Shown piece by piece: positions 2,660 through 50,467 of a stretch of 64,000 nucleotides of DNA. The first letter of the stretch is position 1, and every line of letters begins with the position of its first letter. The stretch comes from Candidatus Omnitrophota bacterium (GTDB lineage Bacteria; Omnitrophota; Gorgyraeia; Zapsychrales; Fredricksoniimonadaceae). The stretch is taken from positions 199,729 through 263,728 of the forward strand of contig JAUSEK010000023.1 in assembly GCA_030650275.1 (NCBI GenBank), given 5' to 3'. A program made the position numbers and the translations under genes. The notes under the pieces are model-generated. The model did no database searches. It saw only the letters and a list, made by a program, of their open reading frames with translations, and was not told the DNA's origin.

Positions 2660-3225
2660 TCATGAACGTTGCGTCCGAGCGTATAAGATTGAAAGATACG
2701 ACTTGCCCGCTCATTCGTCTGGATACGGCCAGGAAGCGGGACAGACCGTTAAGTTTTTCCCTTTCCTTGCTGCTGCATATCCTCATCTTTTTTCTTGTCG
2801 GCATATCTTTGATCAAACCCGCGCAGTTCGGGGTGGACGAAGGTATGGGTAGTGTTGAGATCGACCTTGTGCCCGCTTTGGAAGAGATCGCCCCGCAGGA
2901 AAGCGTTGTGCCGCCGATGATCGTCCAATCCACAGGCGGCGCCATCACCGAGACCAAACCCGATTATCTCAAAAACCCGGCACCTGTATATCCCGAGTCC
3001 GCGCGCCGTCGGGGACAGGAAGGGTTGGTGCTCTTGAGCGTCGCGGTGGATAAAAACGGCCTTCCTCAGGCCGTGGAGATCAAGAAAAGCAGCAGTTTTA
3101 CCTTGCTGGATAATGCGGCTGTCAAGAGCATCCGTGCCTGGAAGTTCCAGCCCGGGCGCATCGGTTCCCTGCCGGTGGATTCCAACGTCGAGATCCGTGT
3201 CCGCTTTCAATTAACATCGCCGTGA
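2656..3225 (+). CDS. tonB: TonB energy transducer (C-terminal TonB domain)
   Basis: C-terminal 'YPESARRRGQEGLVLLSVAVDKNGLPQAVEIKKSSSFTLLDNAAVKSIRAWKFQP' matches the TonB C-terminal domain. Overlapping start with exbD. Confidence 0.7.
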   Translation: MIMNVASERIRLKDTTCPLIRLDTARKRDRPLSFSLSLLLHILIFFLVGISLIKPAQFGVDEGMGSVEIDLVPALEEIAPQESVVPPMIVQSTGGAITETKPDYLKNPAPVYPESARRRGQEGLVLLSVAVDKNGLPQAVEIKKSSSFTLLDNAAVKSIRAWKFQPGRIGSLPVDSNVEIRVRFQLTSP

Positions 3226-3233
3226 GTTATGAA

Positions 3234-4649
3234 TTATTTCTTCGGACGGTAGATATGCGTGGAAGAACCGAAGAAGGATTCGGCGGCTTCCATGATGGTT
3301 TCAGAGAGCGTTGGATGCGGATGGATGGACAGTTTCAGGTCTTTGACCACAGACCCCATTTCAACGGCAACAACCCCTTCAGCGATCATTTCCCCGGCAC
3401 CAACCCCGACAATACCGATCCCCAGAACACGTTCGGTCTTGGGATCAACGAGGATCTTGGTCAGCCCGTCCTGACGGCCAAGGGTCAAAGCACGGCCTGA
3501 CGCGCCCCAGGGGAATTTGACGACGCGGATTTCCTGACCTGTTTTTTGCGCATCTGTTTCGGTCAGGCCGCACCAGGCAATTTCCGGGTCGGTGAAAACG
3601 ACCGCGGGGATGGCGCGCGGCTCAAAGGCGACTTTATGCCCGGCAATGGCTTCGGCCGCCACGAGACCTTCATGGGTGGCCTTGTGGGCGAGCATGGGGT
3701 CACCGGCAACGTCGCCGATGGCGTAAATGTTCGGATCATTGGTCCGGCGCTGGTCATTGACCTCAACGAAACCGCGCGCGTTGACCTTGACCTTGGTGTT
3801 CTCCAAGCCCAGGCCTTCCGAATTGGGTTTGCGGCCGACGGATACCAGCACTTGATCGTAATCTTCCTTGAATTCCTTGCCGTCCTTGTCCGCGAAAGTG
3901 ACGGTGATCCCGTCCTTGTTTTCTTCCATCTTGACGACCTTGGTTTCCAGCATGATCCTGGCGAACAGGCCCTTGACGCGTTTGTAAAGCACATCCGCCA
4001 GATCGCGGTCAGCGCCCGGTAAAAGTCCGGGCATCATTTCCACGACGGAAATTTTGGCGCCCAGTTCATGATACACGGTGCCCAATTCCATGCCGATATA
4101 TCCGCCGCCCACGACCAAAAGACGGCCGGGCACGGCGTCCATGTCCAAAGCAGATGTCGAGTCCCAAATGTGTCGAGATTTAGGTAAGTTAGGCATGGCT
4201 GACGGCCGCGAACCCGTGGCCAGAATGGCTTTCTCAAATGACAGATCTTCAACGATGCCGTCAGATTTTTTGATCTTCAATGCGGAGGAATTGACGAACA
4301 CGGCTTCACCCTGAATGTATCTGATCTTGCGCTGTTTGGTCAAGGCGCCCAAACCGCCGGTGAGTTTGGCGACAACGCTTTTTTTCCAGTCGCGCAGTTT
4401 GTTGATATCAATTTTGGGCGCGCCGTAGGCGATTCCGAAATCAGCGGCGTGCCTGGCCTCGGAGATCACCTTGGCCGCGTGCAGATAGGTTTTGGAGGGG
4501 ATACAGCCGCGGTATAAACACACGCCGCCGGGGTTTGCCTCTTTGTCCACCAAAGCGACGCTTAATCCTAAGTCCGCGGCCTTAAACGCGGCCGCATAAC
4601 CGCCGGGACCGGCGCCGATCACGACCAGTTGGACGGGGGACAAAGACAT
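3234..4649 (-). CDS. lpdA: dihydrolipoyl dehydrogenase (E3)
   Basis: FAD motif 'VVIGAGPGGY', redox-active 'GGVCLYRGCIPSK', 471 aa. Sits directly downstream of E2. Confidence 0.9.
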   Translation of the reverse strand: MSLSPVQLVVIGAGPGGYAAAFKAADLGLSVALVDKEANPGGVCLYRGCIPSKTYLHAAKVISEARHAADFGIAYGAPKIDINKLRDWKKSVVAKLTGGLGALTKQRKIRYIQGEAVFVNSSALKIKKSDGIVEDLSFEKAILATGSRPSAMPNLPKSRHIWDSTSALDMDAVPGRLLVVGGGYIGMELGTVYHELGAKISVVEMMPGLLPGADRDLADVLYKRVKGLFARIMLETKVVKMEENKDGITVTFADKDGKEFKEDYDQVLVSVGRKPNSEGLGLENTKVKVNARGFVEVNDQRRTNDPNIYAIGDVAGDPMLAHKATHEGLVAAEAIAGHKVAFEPRAIPAVVFTDPEIAWCGLTETDAQKTGQEIRVVKFPWGASGRALTLGRQDGLTKILVDPKTERVLGIGIVGVGAGEMIAEGVVAVEMGSVVKDLKLSIHPHPTLSETIMEAAESFFGSSTHIYRPKK

Positions 4650-5915
4650 TTAGATGGCTCCGGGATTTTGCAGGGCTTCGGCAATAAAGCGGATGAAGCG
4701 CGCGCCGTCCGCGCCGTCAATGACACGGTGGTCGTAGGACAGGGACAAGGGAAGCATGAGCCGCGCGACGAATTGATCTTCCGCATATACCTGCTCCATG
4801 ACCCCGCGGGAAACGCCGAGGATGGCGACCTCCGGCCAATTAACAATGGGGGCAAAGAACGTTCCGCCGATACCGCCTAAGTTTGAAATGCTGAAACATC
4901 CGCCCTGCATTTCTTCAATAGTGGTCTTGCGCGCGCGGGCGCGCTCGGCAAGGACTGTCAGTTCGTCGGAGATCTGCAAAACGGTTTTCTGGTCCGCGTT
5001 CTTGATGACCGGCACCAGAAGCCCGCGGTCGGTGTCCACCGCAACGCCGATATTGCAATAGTCCTTATACACGATCTCATGGGCGGCCATGTCAATGGAA
5101 GCGTTGAACTGCGGGAAACGTTTTAAAGCCGCGGCCGTGACCTTGACCAAGAACGGCGTGACGGACAATTTTTTTCCTTCGCCGGCCAAATCTTTGCGCA
5201 GTTGTTCCAGTTCCGTGATGTCCGCTTTGTCAAATTGGGTGACATGGGGGATGGCTTGCCACGCGTGCGAAAGGTGTTCCGCTGTCTTGCGGCGCACATT
5301 GTTCATGGCTTCGCGTTTGACGTTGCCCCATTTGCTGAAATTCGGCAGGGAGGGCTGGGCCGTAGGGCCTGCTGCGCCGCCTGTAATGATGCGCTTGGCG
5401 TAGGCCTTGACGTCGTCGGTGGAAATGCGGCCGCCGGAGCCCGTGCCGGGCACCTGGGCGATATCAATGCCGATCTCACGCGCGAACAAACGCACGGACG
5501 GCGCGGCATGAACGTCCTTGCGCACAGGCATATAAAAAGGCGTTTGCGGCGCTGACGTCGCAACCGGAGCCGCTGTCGGTGTCTGGCTCTCTATTTTGTC
5601 ACCCCCGAATGTTTTTATCGGGGGTCCATCTTTTTGGATTCCCGCTTTCGCGGGAATGACAGGAGAGGTTAAAAGTTCGTCTTGTTGAATTCTGAACACC
5701 GGCTGCCCAACCTTGACCGTGGCCCCGGCCTTGACCAAAATTTCTTTAATGACGCCGTTGTGCTGGGAAGGGACTTCCAAAACCGCCTTGTCCGTTTCCA
5801 GTTCAAGGATGTTCTGGCCTTTTTTAAGCGCGTCGCCGGCCTTGACTAAGACCTTAGTCACGGTGCCTGCGGCGATATTCTCTCCCAGTTCGGGTAAAAA
5901 TATGTCGAGCAGCAT
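4650..5915 (-). CDS. aceF: dihydrolipoamide acetyltransferase (E2) of the pyruvate dehydrogenase complex
   Basis: N-terminal lipoyl domain ('LETDKAVLEVPS'), E3-binding domain ('PSVRLFAREIGIDIAQV') and catalytic 'DHRVIDGA'. The linker carries an in-frame repeat element (see findings). Confidence 0.85.
   Translation of the reverse strand: MLLDIFLPELGENIAAGTVTKVLVKAGDALKKGQNILELETDKAVLEVPSQHNGVIKEILVKAGATVKVGQPVFRIQQDELLTSPVIPAKAGIQKDGPPIKTFGGDKIESQTPTAAPVATSAPQTPFYMPVRKDVHAAPSVRLFAREIGIDIAQVPGTGSGGRISTDDVKAYAKRIITGGAAGPTAQPSLPNFSKWGNVKREAMNNVRRKTAEHLSHAWQAIPHVTQFDKADITELEQLRKDLAGEGKKLSVTPFLVKVTAAALKRFPQFNASIDMAAHEIVYKDYCNIGVAVDTDRGLLVPVIKNADQKTVLQISDELTVLAERARARKTTIEEMQGGCFSISNLGGIGGTFFAPIVNWPEVAILGVSRGVMEQVYAEDQFVARLMLPLSLSYDHRVIDGADGARFIRFIAEALQNPGAI
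5595..5660. repeat. two-hairpin palindromic repeat element, copy inside aceF
   Basis: TTGTCACCCCCGAATGTTTTTATCGGGGGTCCA...GGATTCCCGCTTTCGCGGGAATGACA. Near-identical copies lie at 21321-21402 and 33893-33972. Confidence 0.8.
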
Positions 5916-5924
5916 AGCGTTCCC

Positions 5925-8597
5925 TTATGAAACCATGGGATTTAATTTTTTTGGGTCAATGGGCAGTTCTTTTTGCGCACGGGCCAGCACGTCCGCGCCG
6001 ATCTTTTTTTCATTGTGCAGGGTCACCAGGGCGGCCCAGACAATGTGTTTGGCGTCCACTTCAAAGAAATCACGCAGGGCTTCGCGGCTTTCGCTGCGGC
6101 CGAACCCGTCGGTGCCAAGCGCCGTGAACGGGCCGGGGACCCATTGCCGGATGCTGTCCGGCAGGGTTTTCATGTAATCGGACGCGGCGATGAAAACGCC
6201 CTGCTCGCCTTTTAAGATTTGGGTGATGTACGGCACTTTTTTGGCGCGCGGATCCAAAAGGTTCGCGCGCTCCACGTTGAGCGCTTCGCGGCGCAGTTCA
6301 TTGTAACTGGTGATGCTCCACACGTCGGCGGCCACATGATACTTTTCTTCCAGGACCTTTTGCGCTTCCAGGACCTGGTTCATGATGGCCCCGCTGCCGA
6401 ACAGATGCGCGCGCAAGGGGAATTTCTTTGACGTTTTGCTGTAGCGGTAAAGCCCTTTGATGATGCCGTCCTTGACGCCCTCGGGCATGGCCGGCATGGG
6501 GTAATTTTCATTGCCGACGCTCAAATAATAAAAGACACTGTCCTGTTTTTCGTACATCCGGTAAATGCCGTTGCGGATGATGACCGCGATCTCGTAGGCA
6601 AACGCCGGGTCATAGGAGACAAGGTTGGGCACCGTTGAGGTCAGCAGGTGCGTGTGGCCGTCCTGGTGCTGGAGGCCTTCGCCGTTAAGCGTGGTGCGTC
6701 CTGATGTTGCTCCGACGAGAAATCCTTTGCAGCGCAGGTCCCCGGACGCCCAGACCAGGTCCCCGACGCGCTGGGGGCCGAACATGGAATAATAGGTGTA
6801 GAAAGGGATGGTGTTGATGTTGTGCGTGGCATAGGCCGTGCCCGCGGCGATAAATGACGATATGGAACCGGCCTCGTTGATGCCCTCTTCAAGGATCTGC
6901 CCGTCCTTGGCTTCTTTGTAATAGATCAAACTGTCGGAGTCCACCGGTTCATACAATTGGCCGACGTGGGAATAAATGCCGACCTGGCGGAACAGGCCTT
7001 CCATCCCGAATGTGCGCGCCTCGTCGGGAATGATGGGAACAATGAACTTACCGATCTTTTCGTCGCGCAATAATTTGGAGAGCACGCGCACATACGCCAT
7101 CGTGGTGGAGACCGCGCGGCCTTCGGTGCCTTTGTAAAATTCTTCGAACAGTTCTTCGGCCGGGGTTTGCAAAGGCGCGCTGTCGGTGCGCCGCGATGGC
7201 AGATAACCGCCCAGTTTCTTGCGGCATTCGCGCAGGTATTGCATTTCCGGGGAATTTTCTTCCGGTTTATAGAACGGCGCTTTGGCGATATCTTTGTCGG
7301 CAATAGGGATATTGAACCGCGAGCGGAATTCTTTCAACTCTTCTTCGTTGAGTTTTTTCTGCTGATGGGTGATGTTCTTGCCTTCGCCGCTTTCGCCCAG
7401 ACCGTAGCCCTTGATGGTCTTGGCGAGGATGACGGTCGGCGCGCCTTTGTATTCGACGGCGGCTTTGTAGGCGGCATACACTTTTTCCGGGTCATGCCCG
7501 CCGCGGCGCATCTTGCGGATGTCTTCGTCGGAGAGATTTTTGGCCATGTCCAGCAGGCGCGGGTCTTTGCCGAAGAAATGTTCGCGCACGTAGGCGCCGG
7601 AGGAAACGGTGTATTTTTGATACTCGCCGTCCACTGCCTCGCCCATGCGCCGGGCCAAAAGGCCTTCGCTGTCTTTTTCCAATAAAGGGTCCCAGTCATC
7701 ACCCCAAATGACCTTGATGACGTTCCAGCCCGCGCCCCTGAACAACGCTTCCAGTTCTTGGATGATCTTGCCGTTGCCGCGCACCGGGCCGTCTAAGCGC
7801 TGGAGATTGCAGTTGATGACGAAGATGAGATTGTCCAGTTTTTCGCGGGAGGCCATGGTCAAGGCGCCCAGCGATTCCGGTTCGTCGCTTTCGCCGTCGC
7901 CCATGAACACCCAGACCTTATGACCGTCCTTGGGTTTAAGCCCGCGGTCTTCCAGATAGCGGTTGAACCGCGCCTGGTAAATGCCCATGATGGGGGCCAG
8001 CCCCATGGACACCGTCGGGAATTCCCAAAAATCAGGCATCAGCCACGGGTGAGGATACGACGAAAGGCCGCCGCCGGGCTGCAATTCACGACGGAAATTG
8101 ACCATATTTTGTTCGGTGAGACGGCCTTCCACAAAAGCGCGGGCATAAATACCCGGGGAGGCATGGCCCTGAAAATAGACCTGGTCCCCGATGCCGTCGG
8201 GACCCTTGGCTTTGAAAAAGTGGTTGAACCCGATCTCGTAAAGGGTGGCGGAAGAGGCGTAGGTGGAAATGTGACCGCCGATGCCGTCGGCAACTTTATT
8301 GGCGCGCACCACCATGGCCATGGCGTTCCAGCGGATGATGCTTTTGATCCTGCGCTCCAATTCCCGGTTCCCGGGGAACTGGGGCTGTTTTTCTTTGGTA
8401 ATGGTGTTGATGTAGGGGGTGTTGAGGGTAAAAGGGAGGGTGACCCCGCTTTCCTGGGCCCGGATCTGCAATTGCTGTAGAAGGTATTGGACCCGCTCGG
8501 GGCTGCCGTTGTTCAGCACATAGTCCAGGGACGCCAGCCATTCCTTAAGTTCAATATCATCCATGACCGGAACGCTCTTTTTTACGTGATCGCTCAT
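5925..8597 (-). CDS. aceE: pyruvate dehydrogenase E1 component, homodimeric AceE type
   Basis: 890 aa. N-terminus '[21 protein letters not shown]...' and overall length match AceE. First gene of the aceE-aceF-lpdA operon. Confidence 0.9.
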
Positions 8598-8619: not shown

Positions 8620-8704
8620 TGGTGCCGGAGGAGAGATTTGAACTCTCAAGGCTTTCGCCATACGCTTCTGAGGCGTACGCGTATACCAATTCCGCCACCC
8701 CGGC
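8620..8704 (-). tRNA. tRNA-Leu (anticodon CAG), long variable arm
   Basis: Reverse complement folds as a cloverleaf: acceptor GCCGGGG/CTCCGGC, anticodon loop CTCAGAA, long variable arm, T-loop GTTCAAATC, encoded CCA. Confidence 0.8.
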
Positions 8705-10300: not shown

Positions 10301-10708
10301 TGGTGGAGGTGCCGGGGATCGAACCCGGGTCCTTGAGTTTCAAAGCATAAGCGTCTACGATGCGTAGTTTGTCTTTTAAGTCTCATCCCTCATGCCCCGG
10401 CAAACAGGCTCATTTTGGGACCAGCCCTCAAGGTCTCGCTCCATGAATGAAGGCGGGCTCATGGAGCCAGTCTGCTCATGACCTTTTGTCCTGCCCGCAG
10501 ACACGGCAGGCAAAAGGGCTAAGCTACGAGAGCTTAGACAGCAACGGCTTCAGCCGGAGCTTCGCTTTTGGCGAATTCCGACATGACGCCGTTATACGTT
10601 AACGTTGAGTTAGCGTTTAATTGTGCCTGGATTTTTGTCGAGGCCTACCAGACTTCCCCGGCACGCAACCTATGCCCGAACAACACAAGTCGAGACCAAG
10701 TCACCCCC
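10301..10708 (-). ncRNA. ssrA: tmRNA (ssrA)
   Basis: On the minus strand the 5' end reads GGGGGUGACUUGGUCUCGAC... and the 3' end ...GGGUUCGAUCCCCGGCACCUCCACCA, a tRNA-Ala-like acceptor with T-arm and CCA. A candidate tag frame ends ...GCC GUU GCU GUC UAA. Confidence 0.8.
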
Positions 10709-27404: not shown

Positions 27405-28661
27405 ATGCGTTCCCTACCATACGTTTTTTGGGTTTTGTTCCTTCCGGCGTTCGTTTCCTGCGCCACTCCCCCCAGGAACATCCAGCCGCAGATCAACAGC
27501 TTGGTCATTGCCCAGCATTTTGACAAAGCCGTTTCTTTTTTAGGGCAGAACCCTTCGGCCTACGGCTCCAATAATGAACTTTTATTCTGGCTGGACCGCG
27601 GCTTTGTTTTGCATCTGGCCGGCCGTTACGCCGAAAGTGTCAGCGCTTTTGAGTCCGCCAAACGCAAATTCAACGATCTTTACACCCGTTCGATCAGCCA
27701 GACCGCGGCCACCTATGCTGTTAACGATTATTGGCAGGAGTACAGGGGCGAGGATTACGAGTATGTGCTCGTCAATATTTTTCAGGCCCTGAACTTCGCG
27801 GCCATGGACAATGTCAGCGAAGCGCTTGTTGAGGCGCGGGACATGGACGCCCGGTCGAAATGGACCAAGACCGACGATGCCTTTGCCCGCATGCTCTTCG
27901 GTATTCTGTACCGGGCTGCGGGAACGCCGCAAGATCTCAATGACGCGTATATCGACGATGTCCGCAGCAAAGCCCAATACGGGGCGGATGTCCCCAAGAT
28001 CCTTGCGCAGAATTTGGAAGCGGCGCAAACGCCGGATGTCCAGGCCAGTGCGGAAGTTTATTTGTTCCACTATACGGGGTTTGTTCCTTTAAAGGTCGCG
28101 GATACTTTTCTCATACCTTTGGACGCGAGCCATGTCACGGCCATCAGTTTTCCCCGGTACGCCGACCGGGTCAGCGACGTGCGTTCTTCGGTATTTTCCG
28201 CCGTCGGCCCCGCCGTTGGTCCCGCCGTTGGCGGGGCTGGCAGCAGGAGCGCGCAGGAGAATACGGAACCGGTCGAGGACATCGGCGCCATTGCCAAAAA
28301 GATATTGAATGACCGCAAGGCCTTCATCCTGGCCAAGGCGGGTTTAAGGCCCATCGGAAAATATCTTCTGGAAAAGGCCGTTGAAAGCAGGGTGCGCGAC
28401 AGGAACGGCGAGACCCCGGCGGAGATCGTCAATCTTTTTGCCAACGTCTATAATTTGTATTCTGAACAGGCCGACGTGCGCGGCTGGCAGACCCTGCCGG
28501 AAAAGATCCGCGCGGCGCGCCTGCTGCTGGAGCCGGGCCGGTATGAATTTTTCGTGGAGGATCTTGACGAGAAAGGGGTGTCCCTGGGCAAAAAGCCGCT
28601 GGGTGTTTTTGACCTGCAGGCGGGCCGGAAGAAGTTTTTCATCGTCCGTTCTTACCGTTGA
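27405..28661 (+). CDS. hypothetical lipoprotein (helical/TPR-like N-terminal half)
   Basis: Lipobox 'FVSC'. Contains a short GPAV tandem repeat at ~28200-28240. Co-transcribed with the lpoB-like gene. Confidence 0.4.
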   Translation: MRSLPYVFWVLFLPAFVSCATPPRNIQPQINSLVIAQHFDKAVSFLGQNPSAYGSNNELLFWLDRGFVLHLAGRYAESVSAFESAKRKFNDLYTRSISQTAATYAVNDYWQEYRGEDYEYVLVNIFQALNFAAMDNVSEALVEARDMDARSKWTKTDDAFARMLFGILYRAAGTPQDLNDAYIDDVRSKAQYGADVPKILAQNLEAAQTPDVQASAEVYLFHYTGFVPLKVADTFLIPLDASHVTAISFPRYADRVSDVRSSVFSAVGPAVGPAVGGAGSRSAQENTEPVEDIGAIAKKILNDRKAFILAKAGLRPIGKYLLEKAVESRVRDRNGETPAEIVNLFANVYNLYSEQADVRGWQTLPEKIRAARLLLEPGRYEFFVEDLDEKGVSLGKKPLGVFDLQAGRKKFFIVRSYR

Positions 28662-28703: not shown

Positions 28704-29063
28704 ATGGCAAACAAGAAGATCCTGGTGATCGATGACGATCCAACACTGCTCAAGATGCTCCAGCCCTTTCTGGAATCGCACGGGTTTGCCGTCACTGTTG
28801 CTGTCGATGGGGAGGAAGGCCTCGCCAAATTGAAGATCGAACATCCGGACCTGATCATTCTGGACGTGCAGATGCCCCGGATGAACGGGTACGCGTTCAT
28901 TTCTGAAATGAAGAAATTGGGAGGAGCCAAAAAGATCCCCATCATCGTCCTGACCGCCAAGGAAGGGATGGTGGAGATCTTCAAGGCCGAGGGCGTCAAA
29001 GAATACATCACCAAACCGTTCAAATCCGAGGTCCTTTTAAGCAATATCAACAAGTACGTGTGA
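28704..29063 (+). CDS. single-domain response regulator (CheY-like receiver)
   Basis: '[10 protein letters not shown]', '[14 protein letters not shown]', 'IPIIVLTAK', 'ITKPF' are canonical receiver motifs. Confidence 0.75.
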
Positions 29064-30700
29064 TCCCTCCCGTGCCCCAATACCACAACCTTTCGTTCGA
29101 TGAACTGTTCCGTCACGAGACGGATCCTGCTTTGCAGGGCTATGAGCGCGGGACCGTGACGGATTCAGGATCTGTCGCGGTGGACACGGGCAAATTCACG
29201 GGTCGTTCCCCTAAAGATAAATATATCGTCCTGGATGAAACGACCAAGGATACTGTGTGGTGGGCCACGGGTCAATCATCCGGCTCCGACAATAAGCCGC
29301 TGTCCAAAGAGGCGTGGGCGCATTTGAAAGATGTTGCGGCCAAGCAGTTGGACGGCAAGACGCTTTACACCATGGACGGTTTTTGCGGGGCCAATGCGCA
29401 GACCCGTTTGTCCGTGCGGCTGGTCACCGAGGTTGCGTGGATGGCACATTTTTTCAAGAACATGTTCATCCGCCCGACGGCGGAAGAATTAAAAACGTTC
29501 AAGCCGGACTGGACCATCCTCAACGCCTGCAAGACCACGTGCGCGGATTTCGCGAAATGGGGTTTGCGTAGCGAGGCGTTCGTGGCGTTCAACATCACCG
29601 AGCGCATGACGGTCATCGGCGGCACCTGGTACGGCGGGGAGATCAAAAAAGGCATTTTCTCCATCATGAATTATTTCCTGCCCTTAAAGGGCATCGGCGC
29701 TTTCCATTGTTCAGCCAATCAGGGTGAAGGCGGGGACACGGCGCTGTTCTTCGGCCTGTCCGGCACGGGCAAGACGACCCTGTCCACCGACCCCAAACGA
29801 GCGCTCATCGGGGACGACGAGCATGGCTGGGACAATGAAGGGGTGTTCAATTTTGAAGGCGGCTGTTATGCCAAATGCATAGGGCTCACCGCCGAGCGTG
29901 AGCCGGAAATATTCCGCGCCATACGCCGCGACGCTTTACTGGAGAACGTGGACTTAGGTCCCGGCGGCAAGGTGGATTACGCGTCCAAGAAAAAGACGGA
30001 AAACACCCGCGTGTCCTATCCGCTTAATCACATTGACAATATTGTCAAGCCCGTGTCCAGGGGCGGGCATCCATCAAAGATCATTTTTTTGGCCTGCGAT
30101 GCTTATGGGATCCTGCCGCCGGTGGCAAAACTCACCAGGGAACAGGCCATGTATCATTATCTGAGCGGTTACACAGCCAAGGTGGCCGGCACGGAACTGG
30201 GGGTCAAGGAACCGCAGGCCACGTTTTCCGCCTGTTTCGGCAAGGCATTTTTAATGGTCCACCCGACGCAATACGCGCGCATTCTGGCTGAGAAAATGGA
30301 CAAGCACGGCTCATCCGCGTATTTAGTCAATACCGGTTGGGTCGCCGGCCCCTACGGCGTGGGCTACCGTATTCCTTTAAAGGGCAATCGCTTGATCATA
30401 GACGCCATCTTCAACGGGTCTTTGGATCAGGGAGTGTTCGAGACGTTGCCGGTTTTTAATTTGAGGGTCCCCAAGGCGGTGCCTGGGGTGGACGCGAAAA
30501 TGCTGAACCCGCGCAATCTGTGGGCGGACAAAAAGGCCTATGACCTGCAGGCCGCGCGCCTGGCGCAGATGTTCATCAATAATTTTAAGCTTTTTACCGA
30601 CACGCCCGAGGGCAAGGCCTTGGTGGCGGCCGGCCCCCAACTGGAGCGGGAGATAGACCTGCCCCCTCAACCCGCCATCACTGCCGCCGGCGGTGATTAA
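29060..30700 (+). CDS. pckA: phosphoenolpyruvate carboxykinase (ATP)
   Basis: '[12 protein letters not shown]', kinase-1a '[11 protein letters not shown]', 'IGDDEHGW'. 546 aa. GTG start. Confidence 0.9.
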
Positions 30701-30839: not shown

Positions 30840-33440
30840 GTGAATTTTATGCCGCGTAAGATCATCAGTGCACTCGTTATCTTTGCCTTTCTGACTACGG
30901 CAGTTCCTGTGCCCAGCCGGGCAGGGGAGGTTTTTTTGCCAGCTCCCGGTGCCAGGATGGCTGTAAGTCCCGCCTTTATGCCGCCCATGATCCTGGGTAT
31001 TACCGTGGACGCGAAAGACCCGTTAAAATTTAATTTTTTGATCGACCAGGGTGACGTAGAGACGCAGCATGCTGCGTCTCTACAAGACGAATCAATGAAA
31101 TTGATCAAATATTTTCTCGCGTCTCTCACCATTCCCGAAAAAGACCTGTGGGTCAATTTGTCGCCGTATGAAGGCCAGCGCATTATTCCGCAGGCGTTCG
31201 GCCAGACCGAAATGGGCCGCGACCTTTTGGGCCAGGACTATGTCCTTAAGCAGATCACCGCTTCCCTGATCTATCCCGAGAGCAAACTGGGCAAGAAATT
31301 CTGGGCGGATGTTTACAAGAAAGCCCACGAGCAGTACGGCACCACGAATATCCCCGTTAACACCTTTAACAAGGTGTGGATCGTGCCGGACGAGGCCGTG
31401 GTCTATGAGCGTAATGGCTCGGCGTTCGTGGTCAAAAGCCATTTGAAGGTGATGCTGGAGGAAGATTATTTGGCATTGTCTAAAAATATCTGTAGGGGCG
31501 ATGCTTGTCATCGCCCGCAAGAAGGGCGAATACAAGATTCGCCCCTACAAAGCAATGTGAATCAATTAGGTTCCCAGGTCGTCCGTGAAATAGTTTTGCC
31601 CGCCCTTGAGAAGGAAGTTAATGAGGGTAAGAATTTTGCGTTATTGCGCCAGATCAACAATGCCCTGATCCTGGCCACATGGTACAAGCGCGCTTTGAAG
31701 GAAAGTTTATTGAGTAAATTTTACGTGGACAAGGCCAAGATCAAAGGTGTTGGGTATACGGATTCTGTCATTCCCGCGAAGGCGGGAATCCAGAGCAAGG
31801 GAGACATCGAGGGAATCTACCAGCAATATCTTCAGGCCTTCAAAAAAGGCGTCTATAACTATATTAAGGAAGAGGCCGACCCCTATACCCGGCAAACCGT
31901 CCCGCGCAAATATTTTTCCGGCGGTTTTGAGGGGAAAGACTATTCGATGGTTGTAAAAACGACCCGCAATACAAGAGATGTTCCCGACACATTTCGCGAG
32001 CGGATCCAACGCGCAAGATCAAACAATGGCCTTATGGACGTGGCCATTGAAGCGCAAGATGCGGCGATGACCGGACCTTCACATGACCGGGCGATGACTG
32101 TGACTTTGTCACCAATAGCATTGAATGGCGTTCGTCAACTGAAGAAGTGGATGGAAGAGGCCGTACAACAGATCAAAGATGCGCGCACGGATTGGAAAAG
32201 CCAGACAATACAAATAAACGAATATGGACAGAGGCTTAAACAAGCTGCGAATGTTAGAGAACAATACAGTTCTTTCCTTGAGGGTGATCCTTTTTTAAGC
32301 AAGTTGAGGTGGATTTTTATGGGTGGCGGTATGCGTTTGCCTAAACAAGACCCCAATAATTCAGATGAAAAAGATAGATATATTGGTGTTTTGGGGCGCG
32401 ATCCGGCGGGGGGTCTTGTTATTGGCGTGACGGATAATTCGCAATACATGACATCTTTGGAAGTTTCGAATACCTTTGGGGCTGTTACTAGCTATGTCAG
32501 CATGATCGATGGGGATCAGGATTTCTTTTTAAGCGAGATCGACAAAGTAATTGATGACATTTTAATTCGTGGCCAAAATGTGATCGATCTGCTTGCAAAA
32601 GTTGAAAATTCCCAGCCGGGAACAGGGTTTGAAACCGTTAATGTCATAGGGATAGATAAAAATCTTAAATCCATTGTTATATCCATCGTGGATCCGCGAT
32701 TGACCGTTGTTCAGCCGGATCAGGTGGCTGCTGACCAAGCCCCTGCGGACTCCGCGATGACTGCGGAGCGGAAAGTGAAGAGTATTTTGTTTGTTGATAA
32801 TGATCCCACTACAGTGGAAACAAACAGTCGATTGTTGAGACTTGGGGGATACCGAGTGGATGGGGTTACAAGCGGTCAAAAAGCATTAAATATGTTATTG
32901 CGTAACTCGTATGACTTGGTCGTTACATCTTCGCTAAGAGGAGCAGGCGACATTGGGGTGGAGGGACTTGCAAATATACTTGCTGCAAATCAGCCAACGC
33001 CTTTTATCATTTTTTCAGGAGATATTATGGGTGATATAATTCCTGACAGCGTCAAACGTGCGGCGCTAGAAGTTCTTCCCAGAGAGCCGACTTCAGAGAA
33101 TCTTCTTCGAGCTTTACGAAAAATTAATGGAGAACCAGAACCTGCCAATGTTTTAGAAAAAGGACCAACGCAAAGCCCTCCTAAAGGAAAACTATTAAGG
33201 CCTAAGTTTGGGAAAGATTCGGCCATGAACGCTGCGGCAAAAGATGTCGGCGGTATTGACTTGAACCCGGCGAATTTGAATTTGCGCATCAGGCGCGACG
33301 GCAAGGGCGTGCCTTTGCCGACAGGCCAGCAGGACATGGGGCAGTTGAATAATATTGAAGGCCTGATGCCGGTTATCATCAAGATCGTGCCCGCGACCTA
33401 TATCCCGGCGCTTTCCGACGTCCTGGCTACGGTCAATTGA
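30840..33440 (+). CDS. giant secreted mosaic protein, paralog 2 (conserved N-terminal module, low-GC centre with receiver-like domain, conserved C-terminal tail)
   Basis: Signal peptide. N-terminal ~330 aa aligns with paralog 1 ('ESMKLIKYFL.SLTIPEKDLWVNLSPYE', 'IPVNTFNKVWIV', 'HLKVMLEEDY'). Middle 'KSILFVDNDPTT...YDLVVTSS' is receiver-like. C-terminal 'GGIDLN...IVPATYIPALSDVL'. Confidence 0.7.
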   Translation: MNFMPRKIISALVIFAFLTTAVPVPSRAGEVFLPAPGARMAVSPAFMPPMILGITVDAKDPLKFNFLIDQGDVETQHAASLQDESMKLIKYFLASLTIPEKDLWVNLSPYEGQRIIPQAFGQTEMGRDLLGQDYVLKQITASLIYPESKLGKKFWADVYKKAHEQYGTTNIPVNTFNKVWIVPDEAVVYERNGSAFVVKSHLKVMLEEDYLALSKNICRGDACHRPQEGRIQDSPLQSNVNQLGSQVVREIVLPALEKEVNEGKNFALLRQINNALILATWYKRALKESLLSKFYVDKAKIKGVGYTDSVIPAKAGIQSKGDIEGIYQQYLQAFKKGVYNYIKEEADPYTRQTVPRKYFSGGFEGKDYSMVVKTTRNTRDVPDTFRERIQRARSNNGLMDVAIEAQDAAMTGPSHDRAMTVTLSPIALNGVRQLKKWMEEAVQQIKDARTDWKSQTIQINEYGQRLKQAANVREQYSSFLEGDPFLSKLRWIFMGGGMRLPKQDPNNSDEKDRYIGVLGRDPAGGLVIGVTDNSQYMTSLEVSNTFGAVTSYVSMIDGDQDFFLSEIDKVIDDILIRGQNVIDLLAKVENSQPGTGFETVNVIGIDKNLKSIVISIVDPRLTVVQPDQVAADQAPADSAMTAERKVKSILFVDNDPTTVETNSRLLRLGGYRVDGVTSGQKALNMLLRNSYDLVVTSSLRGAGDIGVEGLANILAANQPTPFIIFSGDIMGDIIPDSVKRAALEVLPREPTSENLLRALRKINGEPEPANVLEKGPTQSPPKGKLLRPKFGKDSAMNAAAKDVGGIDLNPANLNLRIRRDGKGVPLPTGQQDMGQLNNIEGLMPVIIKIVPATYIPALSDVLATVN
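31056..31083. repeat. perfect 28-bp palindrome inside paralog 2 coding sequence
   Basis: GTAGAGACGCAGCATGCTGCGTCTCTAC. It differs from the paralog-1 copy by paired, compensatory changes. Confidence 0.9.
31492..31558. repeat. nested palindromic element inside paralog 2 coding sequence
   Basis: GTAGGGGCGA TGCTTGTCATCGCCCGCAAGAAGGGCGAATACAAGA TTCGCCCCTAC: an outer 10-bp stem plus an inner hairpin. Occupies the site where paralog 1 carries the two-hairpin element. Confidence 0.75.
31766..31792. repeat. half-copy (second hairpin) of the two-hairpin element, inverted, in frame in paralog 2
   Basis: TGTCATTCCCGCGAAGGCGGGAATCC is the reverse complement of GGATTCCCGC(T/C)TTCGCGGGAATGACA from the aceF copy. 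Encodes 'VIPAKAGIQ', the same peptide as in the aceF linker. Confidence 0.75.
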
Positions 33441-33486: not shown

Positions 33487-33870
33487 ATGCGTAAAACGTT
33501 CAAAACAGCTTTCGTTTTGTCTCTGGCCGGGGTGTTCACCCTTGGCTCGGTGCTGTGTTGTTGCGCGCGCAATATCGCTCATGCTGATACGGTTGCCGCA
33601 GCCAAGTCCCATGCCTGCTGCGCTTCCAAGCAGACCCAGCCCCAGAAAGCGGCTGATTGCGAGCATTGTTCCGTTTCCCTGAAGTCCGCGCAGATAGCCC
33701 AATCCTTTGATCTCATCCCGTCTTTTACCATCGCGTTCAATCTTTTGCCCGCGGACATTGTATTCATTACACACACTCCAGTAGTTTATCAAACCGTCTG
33801 GGCTGACGGCCCGCCCGGTTTCTCGTCCGAAGTTCCTTTCTACATCCAGTCCCATCAGTTACGAGTATAA
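33487..33870 (+). CDS. small secreted Cys-rich protein (possible periplasmic metal-binding protein)
   Basis: Signal peptide. 'LCCCARNIAHADTVAAAKSHACCASKQTQPQKAADCEHCS' is rich in Cys and His. Immediately upstream of cusBA-like genes. Confidence 0.4.
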   Translation: MRKTFKTAFVLSLAGVFTLGSVLCCCARNIAHADTVAAAKSHACCASKQTQPQKAADCEHCSVSLKSAQIAQSFDLIPSFTIAFNLLPADIVFITHTPVVYQTVWADGPPGFSSEVPFYIQSHQLRV

Positions 33871-33892: not shown

Positions 33893-33972
33893 TGTCACCC
33901 CCGAATGTTTTTATCGGGGGTCCAGGGTTGGCTAATTCTCTGGATTCCCGACACAAGCATTCGGGAATGACA
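33893..33972. repeat. two-hairpin palindromic repeat element, intergenic copy
   Basis: TTGTCACCCCCGAATGTTTTTATCGGGGGTCCAGGG...GGATTCCCGACACAAGCATTCGGGAATGACA, between the Cys-rich ORF and cusB. Confidence 0.85.
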
Positions 33973-34001: not shown

Positions 34002-35141
34002 ATGTCTAATACATCAAAAATCATCATCAGTATCCTGATCCTGGCCGCGGCCGGGGGTGGATGGCTTTTGCTTCAAGGGTACAAGGCGGCCCCTTCCCAA
34101 GCCGCAGCCAAAGAAATTTGGTATTGCCCCATGCACCCGCATTACACCAGCGACCGTCCGGGCGATTGCCCCATCTGCGGGATGAAACTGGTCAAGAAAG
34201 AGGGGCACCCCAACGCCCAACACGCACTGCAGGAACATATTTCAGGTCCTGAAAATCGTTTGGCCGATCATGCGCCGGTGGCGCTGGACGCGCGCCAGGA
34301 GCAGTTGACGGGGGTCAAGACGGTTGCTGTGCGCAAGCAAGCCCTGATGAGAACGATCAGGGTCCCGGGGTATGTGTCCACCAACCATGATCTGTATGCA
34401 CTGCAGAATGAATACGTGCAGGCCTATATCAACTATATTACGGTTTACCGGGATTACCGCCGTTTTGAGCATACGCGGCGCAACTGGGAAACGCACCGGG
34501 GCCTTCAGGTCAAAATACATGAAGCCGAGGACAAATTATTGCGTCTGGGGTTCAGCCGTGATCAGATCGGGAAATTAAGGAAGGTTTCCTGGAAAACATT
34601 GTGGGACCAGCCGGAATTGCTGTTGTTCAAGGACGGGGCCAGTTATTGGGTCGTGGCGCAGATCTTTGAGCCGGACCGCGGGTTCGTGGAAGCGGGGCAG
34701 GAAGTCCAGGTGGAGATCCCTGCTTACGCTGAAAAAATAACAGGCGTGATCCGGACCGTCGGCGGTATTTTTGATCCCCAGACCAGGACGGTCAATGCCA
34801 TCATAGAACTGACCGGTTATCGCGGCGAGCTGGAAGGCAACATGCTCGTTAATGTGACGATCCCCGTGGATCTCAATGAATTCCTCATCGTTCCGTCAAC
34901 GGCGGTGATGGATACGGGTTTAAGGAAGATCGTTTACGTTGAAAGCAAGCCCGGCATTTTTGAGCCGCGGGAGATCCAGACAGGGCCGTTGGGGGACAAT
35001 GGCTGGGCAGTCAAGTCCGGGTTGGCGGAAGGTGAACAGGTGGCAGCGGAGGGCAATTTCCTTCTGGATTCGGAAAGCCGCCTGCGGGCTGTCCTGTCCG
35101 ACGATACAGCCGGCCAAGGGGAGCATATCCATGGACAATAA
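34002..35141 (+). CDS. cusB: heavy-metal efflux RND periplasmic adaptor (CusB-like) with N-terminal metal-binding motif
   Basis: 'YCPMHPHYTSDRPGDCPICGMKL' metal-binding domain followed by membrane-fusion-protein beta-barrel and lipoyl-like regions. Confidence 0.75.
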   Translation: MSNTSKIIISILILAAAGGGWLLLQGYKAAPSQAAAKEIWYCPMHPHYTSDRPGDCPICGMKLVKKEGHPNAQHALQEHISGPENRLADHAPVALDARQEQLTGVKTVAVRKQALMRTIRVPGYVSTNHDLYALQNEYVQAYINYITVYRDYRRFEHTRRNWETHRGLQVKIHEAEDKLLRLGFSRDQIGKLRKVSWKTLWDQPELLLFKDGASYWVVAQIFEPDRGFVEAGQEVQVEIPAYAEKITGVIRTVGGIFDPQTRTVNAIIELTGYRGELEGNMLVNVTIPVDLNEFLIVPSTAVMDTGLRKIVYVESKPGIFEPREIQTGPLGDNGWAVKSGLAEGEQVAAEGNFLLDSESRLRAVLSDDTAGQGEHIHGQ

Positions 35142-50393: not shown

Positions 50394-50467
50394 GCGGGGG
50401 TCATACAGTGGTAGTATATCAGCTTCCCAAGCTGATTGCGAGGGTTCGATTCCCTTCCCCCGCTCCA
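50394..50467 (+). tRNA. tRNA-Gly (anticodon CCC)
   Basis: Acceptor GCGGGGG/CCCCCGC, D-arm ATAC/GTAT, anticodon stem TCAGC/GCTGA with loop TTCCCAA, T-loop TTCGATT, encoded CCA. Confidence 0.8.

Follow-up and report, generated by a model that had tools for sequence, protein, structure and literature searches.

A probable GTAG-tagged palindromic repeat doublet, read in frame, in a variable loop of an Omnitrophota protein family

The 64,000-nucleotide stretch of a Candidatus Omnitrophota bacterium analysed here (contig JAUSEK010000023.1, positions 199,729 to 263,728; the window, in what follows) contains two paralogous genes that carry palindromic inserts at the same aligned position of their coding sequences. 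What is the insert of the second gene, paralog 2, how could it have come to be read as protein, and why should this position hold one palindrome in one paralog and another palindrome in its neighbour? We consider it highly probable that the paralog 2 insert, a 57-bp segment, is a head-to-head heterodimer of GTAG-tagged repetitive extragenic palindromic (REP) units with the tags outside, the anatomy of a REP doublet forming hairpins (REPIN), placed in frame within the gene. The two genes concerned are as follows.

20658 to 25322, plus strand: paralog 1, 1554 amino acids (aa); the shared N-terminal domain precedes an enolase-like region and a histidine phosphatase domain.
30840 to 33440, plus strand: paralog 2, the host gene of the element, 866 aa; the N-terminal family domain (about 400 aa) is accompanied by a weak match to a response-regulator receiver and, at the C terminus, by a GGIDLN motif.

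The initial annotation had described a nested, in-frame palindrome in paralog 2 at 31492-31558. Its presence and its frame hold, but the end lies 10 nt too far, and the palindromic insert spans 31492-31548, or 57 bp. The inverted-repeat arms, 31491-31516 and 31524-31549, are 26 nt each, 85% complementary and 7 nt apart. Both also fold on themselves, each into a perfect 8-bp hairpin with a 5-nt loop, which on the left reads GGGCGATG-CTTGT-CATCGCCC and on the right, on the plus strand, GGGCGAAT-ACAAG-ATTCGCCC. The order of parts is thus that of a tags-outside heterodimer (GTAG, hairpin, 7-nt spacer, hairpin, CTAC), and both units show an unpaired GTAG beside a stem within the 6-13 bp range of GTAG-tagged REPs.

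31492 to 31516, plus strand: left REP unit, with the GTAG tag at 31492-31495, the stem at 31496-31503/31509-31516 and the loop CTTGT at 31504-31508.
31517 to 31523, no strand assigned: spacer GCAAGAA, 7 nt, between the REP units; a 7-nt spacing is also found in the doublets of loci L003 and L252 (loci outside the window are given by L numbers).
31524 to 31548, minus strand: right REP unit, inverted; the minus strand reads GTAGGGGCGAATCTTGTATTCGCCC, and on the plus strand the CTAC tag occupies 31545-31548.

The segment is predicted to fold far more stably than expected by chance. As DNA it reaches -24 kcal/mol, compared with a mean of -7.8 for shuffled sequences (z = -8.1), and as RNA -42.5 kcal/mol (z = -8.5); none of 200 dinucleotide shuffles folded as stably. 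Two inverted REPs separated by a short spacer can form one long hairpin, as in a REPIN, and the DNA is predicted to be stable both in that form (-22.2 kcal/mol) and as a pair of separate hairpins (-18.8 kcal/mol). The sites at which the arms mismatch each other (TG/CA vs AT/AT) pair inside their own arm, and it is therefore the hairpin of the single unit that appears to be the conserved feature. The bare 10-mer GTAGGGGCGA matches four times in the 64-kb window (at most one mismatch), with 3.5 matches expected, and is not over-represented; the significance of the element consequently rests on its palindromic structure and on matches elsewhere, not on its copy number in the window. Neither the flanks of the window element (...AATATCT / AAAGCAA...) nor those of a related element in L001 (...AATGAAT / GGAATGA...) contain a direct repeat, and the window element thus lacks the target-site duplication of a miniature inverted-repeat transposable element. 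An Rfam gathering scan of the whole window returned a transfer-messenger RNA and two tRNAs only, and no RNA family on the element; these genes lie at 10301-10708 (minus strand), 8623-8704 (minus strand) and 50394-50464 (plus strand), respectively.

Within paralog 2 the element follows immediately 3' of HLKVMLEEDYLALSKN and translates in frame as ICRGDACHRPQEGRIQDSPLQ, supplying residues 218-236 (about 19 residues) of the N-terminal domain. The predicted peptide of paralog 2, a putative translation, is CRGDACHRPQEGRIQDSPL. The alignment of paralogs 1 and 2 stays in one frame on both sides of the insert. In an AlphaFold2 model of paralog 2, residues 218-237 form a coil between two helices, with a predicted local distance difference test (pLDDT) value of about 50. 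For the N-terminal domain common to both paralogs (about 400 aa) there is no Pfam model, and a Foldseek search of the PDB gave no match at E < 0.5. The domain has 1539 database relatives, of which all named ones are Candidatus Omnitrophica/Omnitrophota, and the best match in the family is 62% identical. That an in-frame REP doublet occupies a tolerant surface loop of this domain is well supported. In one respect the window copy departs from GTAG-tagged REPs, since these are predominantly extragenic in location and it is intragenic and in frame.

The same unit is dispersed far beyond this gene. Its pattern, GTAG-GGGCGNNN-CTTGT-NNNCGCCC, scanned as GTAGGGGCGNNNCTTGTNNNCGCCC, was found in at least 120 stretches of one-per-species GTDB genomes and in 93 stretches of viral contigs. 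The matches listed span Acidobacteriota, Chloroflexota, Desulfobacterota, Gammaproteobacteria, Bacteroidota, Firmicutes, Parcubacteria and Omnitrophota, and include Hymenobacter, Flavonifractor, Elusimicrobium and one metagenome-assembled genome (MAG) of Omnitrophota. The NNN triplets of the stem are perfectly complementary in 117 of 146 pattern matches, against 1/64 by chance, and 16 different complementary triplet pairs occur among the 146 units, the kind of stem covariation that is known from GTAG-tagged REPs. An inverted partner accompanies 58 of the 146 units with the tags outside and 22 with the tags inside.

The halves of the window element, and the doublet as a whole, recur as well. 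The left 25-mer is identical in L058, a Deltaproteobacteria MAG, and the right 25-mer in many loci (L043, L115, L232, L269, L277 and others). In L003, a Geobacter MAG, positions 2957-3013 hold an extragenic doublet that is likewise 57 bp long, has 52 of the 57 positions in common with the window element (91%) and begins on the stop codon of an open reading frame (ORF) at 2508-2960. A doublet at 1674-1732 of L240 is 88% identical, and L252, a viral contig, carries two (7642-7698 and 8331-8387, 84%), each straight after the end of one of two successive ORFs. The doublet thus recurs as a unit, as REPINs do, and relatives in extragenic positions comprise the L003 and L252 doublets and a unit in L069. 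No transposase-like ORF was seen by eye between the two L252 doublets, where no library search was made. A Geobacter MAG and viral contigs of IMG/VR thus contain doublets that are 84-91% identical to the window element and spaced like it; such sharing of one REP doublet type across phyla may reflect carriage by phages or convergence.

At the position of paralog 1 that aligns with the paralog 2 doublet there is a palindrome of another kind. The initial annotation had reported an 82-bp two-hairpin element at 21321-21402; we find the element at the aligned site as described, with a span of 21322-21402 (81 bp). It is a doublet tagged with TGTC, and its ends are conserved in two further copies in the window.

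21322 to 21402, plus strand: TGTC-tagged, tags-outside doublet in loop B of paralog 1, 81 bp, TGTC-ACCCCCGA..TCGGGGGT ... ATTCCCGA..TCGGGAAT-GACA.
5597 to 5661, plus strand: second copy of the TGTC doublet, inside a mechanically listed ORF at 4650-5915 (minus strand); a possible further in-frame insertion within a gene, unless the ORF is over-extended.
33893 to 33972, plus strand: third copy of the TGTC doublet, between mechanically listed ORFs at 33487-33870 and 34002-35141.

The aligned position of the two inserts could suggest that they diverged from a single ancestral segment of the loop. Their tags (GTAG and TGTC), stems and loops are unrelated, however, and each is closer to independent copies elsewhere than to the other: the TGTC doublet to its two additional window copies, and the GTAG doublet to that of the Geobacter MAG. 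We therefore give common descent by simple divergence practically no chance and regard it as refuted; the proposal that two unrelated inserts share one site is borne out.

The wider family was represented by 80 metagenomic loci together with L001 and the window, which yielded 91 motif matches, of which 89 copies had sufficient length for the analysis. Hairpins were counted when perfect and with a stem of at least 8 bp, and densities in variable and conserved columns were calculated after de-duplication at 85% aa identity. Numbered on a reference member, the hairpins peak in three loops: loop A at residues 71-77 (25 hairpins), loop B, the site of the doublets, at 210-219 (32) and loop C at 277-301 (about 19). 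The density is 4.17 hairpins per kb in loop B and 0.117 in the adjacent conserved core; over the de-duplicated set, variable columns contain 3.84 per kb and conserved columns 0.45. On the same contigs, intergenic or short-ORF DNA has 1.17 and other long ORFs 0.31 hairpins per kb. At least three unrelated repeat types are involved. The AlphaFold2 model of paralog 2 shows each of the three loops as a coil that connects secondary-structure elements; pLDDT values are about 79 for loop A and about 50-60 for the other two, and highly conserved stretches flank the loops. The suggestion of an insertion hotspot, and the call for a family alignment across the loop to examine it, are answered by this set: hairpins are concentrated in variable columns, and the hotspot reading holds across the family.

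Loops A and C carry their own palindromes in the window genes.

31056 to 31083, no strand assigned: perfect 28-bp GTAG...CTAC palindrome in loop A of paralog 2, GTAGAGACGCAGCATGCTGCGTCTCTAC, peptide VETQHAASL.
20880 to 20907, no strand assigned: perfect 28-bp GTAG...CTAC palindrome at the aligned site in loop A of paralog 1, GTAGAGACGAGGCATGCCTCGTCTCTAC.
31766 to 31789, plus strand: single TGTC-tagged REP in loop C of paralog 2, TGTC-ATTCCCGC-GAAG-GCGGGAAT, peptide VIPAKAGI.
60467 to 60838, plus strand: third family copy of the window, truncated, 123 aa, with a loop A hairpin CCCTCCCC-CTTGT-GGGGAGGG at 60690-60710.

The only differences between the loop A palindromes of paralogs 1 and 2 are changes mirrored in both arms, and other members of the family (L128, L158, L197, L200) show the variant CCATT/AATGG at this site. 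Template switching in quasi-palindromes can keep stems perfect without selection. An ancient insertion kept perfect in this manner, recurrent insertion and conversion between the paralogs are all possible origins of the 28-bp palindromes. The loop C REP falls within a 12-residue insert of paralog 2 relative to paralog 1. Downstream of the truncated third copy, up to about 60900, the sequence resembles the C-terminal motif of the family, which suggests an internal deletion or a pseudogene.

Might the hairpin itself be selected, for instance as a messenger RNA structure that pauses ribosomes between folding units or controls mRNA decay? The very stable predicted RNA hairpin (-42.5 kcal/mol) would agree with this, as would stems that remain perfect despite differences from arm to arm and from member to member, among them the mirrored changes of the loop A palindromes. 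Nevertheless, only 24 of 79 loop B segments contain a strong hairpin and the other 55 contain none, and the absence of a hairpin from about 70% of the loops argues against selection for one. One recurrent loop type, KHEGIQS..., occurs in at least eight copies, all of them free of hairpins. Those hairpins that do occur are members of dispersed repeat families, unrelated to one another, which are found between genes as well, and extragenic copies, too, have perfect stems in the form of complementary sub-family variants (PMC3733652). Selection for a hairpin at this position, raised in the initial annotation as the alternative to a hotspot, is accordingly very improbable. The KHEGIQS... loops were also considered as decayed tails of a ...GCGGGAATCCAG REP, a derivation that could be ruled out because the eight loops use varied codons (GGN ATT CAA) and not GGAATCCAG.

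GTAG-type elements occupy loop B in six copies, namely paralog 2 of the window, L001, L124, L143, L147 (a single unit) and L148. They differ in stem sequence and in spacer length and are read in two frames, CRG... and VGA.... Their carriers are not each other's nearest relatives: pairwise identities are 0.58-0.77, around a family median of 0.63, and the closest relative of the L001 copy (L156, 84% aa identity) has no element. L124 matches the window at 58325-60687 with 87.6% nucleotide identity over 2.4 kb, a match that reaches into the family gene; in loop A of this syntenic pair, L124 has a GTAG doublet and the window copy at 60467-60838 has the CCCTCCCC-CTTGT-GGGGAGGG hairpin. Polyphyletic carriers and the differing elements of the syntenic pair together indicate distinct insertions at a hotspot. 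The elements of the window (57 bp) and of L001 (78 bp) are multiples of three in length, and the loop B doublet of L124 measures 56 bp by manual count, so that conservation of the frame belongs to the whole insertion event and not to the element alone.

How such a doublet could move is suggested by a locus from another phylum. An ORF of L011, at 3952-4728, matches the Y1_Tnp family (PF01797, E = 3.6e-8; IS200-like, RAYT-type transposases) and is bracketed by units of the repeat. These lie upstream of the ORF at 3922-3946, across its annotated 5' end at 4013-4037 and downstream of it at 4923-4947. It is only here, outside Omnitrophota, that a REP-associated tyrosine transposase (RAYT) flanked by REPs of the family was found. 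Homologues of the L011 protein are present in three more REP-bearing loci (L062, L101 and L096). On L152, an Omnitrophota contig that bears a family gene, we noted a truncated, PF01797-related Y1_Tnp ORF at 3921-4283 (minus strand), with a GTC-tagged REP (2950-2969) about 950 nt away.

Taking these observations together, we propose that the 57-bp segment would be a non-autonomous mobile element, moved probably as single-stranded hairpin DNA by a RAYT supplied in trans. It would be without function for the host protein, and may persist because the loop tolerates extra residues, because this frame of the element contains no stop codon and because the reading frame was kept. Its recurrence at the same loops could stem from an integration preference or from exchange of loops among the many paralogs.

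Several observations weigh against this account. Just one copy of this REP type, the GTAG doublet, lies within the 64-kb window. No target-site signature of the element was found, and transposition was not observed. A tblastn search of the window and of 767 kb of Omnitrophota loci with the L011 protein detected no homologue, except for the truncated Y1_Tnp ORF of L152; mobilisation by a RAYT is therefore argued from the repeat family and not from the source organism. The two remaining points concern the loops. GTAG hairpins amount to 0.91 per kb of variable columns and to 0.027 per kb of intergenic DNA, an excess of about 30-fold that is based on two intergenic cases only and that is not readily predicted by random insertion combined with mere tolerance. 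Moreover, all six loop B GTAG elements begin 6-7 nt past the same Lys codon, a common start point that hints at site specificity or at cassette exchange.

Targeted integration, in which the elements or their transposase would recognize sequence or structure at the three loops and perhaps re-use remnants of earlier REPs, is possible, and we entertain it tentatively; it is compatible with a REP doublet. The excess over intergenic DNA, which holds for GTC-tagged hairpins as well (1.82 per kb of variable columns vs 0.23), favours it, as do the shared start of six polyphyletic elements read in two frames, the ends of three different loop A GTAG elements at one nucleotide before the ESMKLIKYF codons, and the close syntenic pair with different elements in one loop. 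On the other hand, the junctions have no visible target motif in common, and the part of loop B that does not belong to the element comprises only about 10-17 nt, which constrains the positions in any case. Two intergenic cases are a tiny count, gene copies of common ancestry do not represent independent events, and choice of a target by an insertion mechanism has not been established for REPs.

A second possibility, which we regard as doubtful, is recombination or gene conversion between paralogs, by which a few original insertions, along with the sequence directly beside them, would have spread from copy to copy as loop cassettes. Genomes of this group have many copies (four on the 12.5-kb L001, three in the window), and the conserved stretches around the loops could guide recombination. 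The flanks of the L001 element, LALSKN.../...NDVNALGSQ, are common to other carriers, while its closest relative L156 has LSLAKHEGIQS.../...DANQLGSQ; judged from these sequences, the resemblance may mildly favour exchange. The six loop B GTAG elements nevertheless differ in stem, spacer length or frame, which would still require several origins, and the copies compared come from different metagenomes and not from one genome. Both targeted integration and cassette exchange agree with the loop excess and with the near-identical junctions. That the three loops are genuine preferred sites of REP integration, with rapid turnover between close copies and a diversification of loops in fusion proteins that bear signal peptides, is a more far-reaching reading that we think unlikely.

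Outside the family, one extragenic relative of the GTAG unit lies in the window.

27391 to 27417, no strand assigned: extragenic GTAG-tagged palindrome GTAGGAACGCATCGATGCGTTCCCTAC at a gene junction.

The TAG of this palindrome is the stop codon of an LpoB-like ORF at 26546-27394. Directly downstream of paralog 1, at 25426-26256 (plus strand), there is an ORF with a Bro-N domain, a domain characteristic of proteins from phages and viruses. Between paralogs 1 and 2 there is a PEPCK gene (this observation covers 20658-25322, 30840-33440, 29060-30700 and L001). Family members are built alike: the N-terminal domain, which carries a hydrophobic leader, and the C-terminal GGIDLN... motif are conserved, and the enzyme or signalling module between them varies. 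Modules seen are enolase-like plus histidine phosphatase, or a receiver domain, and in relatives HAD and methyltransferase domains; glycolytic-type enzymes are here joined to an uncharacterised scaffold domain that the members have in common.

REPs are defined as extragenic. Palindromes read within genes have nonetheless been described by Di Nocera, De Gregorio and Rocco (BMC Genomics 2013, PMC3733652), who reported GTAG-tagged REPs, their head-to-head dimers and heterodimers, and intragenic GTAG and CGTC REPs of which in-frame dimers or grouped inserts encode 20-30 aa. The same survey reported multiple REP insertions within single genes, different REPs at about one site of Xanthomonas recB genes, and use of the TAG of the tag as a stop codon. 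In-frame intragenic REPs are thus a phenomenon already known in other bacteria. The window element resembles the REPs of that survey in its unpaired GTAG, a stem within the 6-13 bp range, head-to-head dimer and heterodimer arms, as well as in sub-families that differ by complementary stem changes, use of TAG as a stop (at 27391-27394 of the window), an in-frame intragenic doublet and differing REPs at one site of homologous genes. Its 5-nt loop is CTTGT, and the comparison with the survey, which numbers 24 families, was made by anatomy. Unlike in that survey, the host phylum is Omnitrophota, which lies outside those covered, and the intragenic copies are concentrated in three loops of one large paralogous family and are more numerous than intergenic ones in the contigs sampled.

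Two other known systems bear comparison. In REPIN-RAYT systems (Bertels and Rainey 2011, PMC3116915; PMC3337134), REPINs are described as extragenic, vertically inherited and lineage-specific populations with one cognate RAYT per genome. The window element is like them in its inverted REPs with a short spacer, its capacity for a long hairpin and the conservation of the doublet as a unit in several places, and the Y1 HUH transposase gene bracketed by REPs in L011 is like a REPIN-RAYT arrangement. Unlike REPINs, the family extends across many phyla and viral contigs, and the window copy is part of a coding sequence. Rickettsia palindromic elements (RPEs) are likewise palindromic repeats placed in frame in genes without destroying them, and the peptides that they add sit at surface positions of proteins. 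Their sequences are unrelated to ours, they belong to a different lineage and they are not concentrated in one gene family. RPE-1 is a longer palindromic insertion, and RPE-4 and RPE-6 have been equated with intragenic CGTC REPs (PMC3733652); the GTAG unit does not have the CGTC tag, and RPEs are for this element a functional analogue only.

New here are the Omnitrophota host, a doublet nearly identical to extragenic ones of other phyla and of viral contigs, and the clustering within three loops of one large paralogous family, which is unusual in degree. For Omnitrophota, the papers searched mention no palindromic repeats except CRISPR. An Omnitrophota gene is predicted to translate a REP doublet of which near-identical copies stand outside genes in a Geobacter MAG and in viral contigs, and in the sampled contigs of this phylum GTAG palindromes occur mainly in three loops of one family and not between genes. 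Repeat-encoded peptides such as CRGDAC...RIQDSPL, VIPAKAGIQ and VETxHAxSL in proteins of uncultured phyla should be masked in homology searches and structure prediction, and palindromic inserts can mislead gene calling and the alignment of paralogs. If the enrichment survives proper modelling, it would point to site-preferred integration or loop exchange and would make the family a natural system in which selfish palindromes reshape proteins. If the reading of preferred sites were true, this would be a mechanism of variation for exposed protein loops that is driven by mobile elements and goes beyond tolerated junk.

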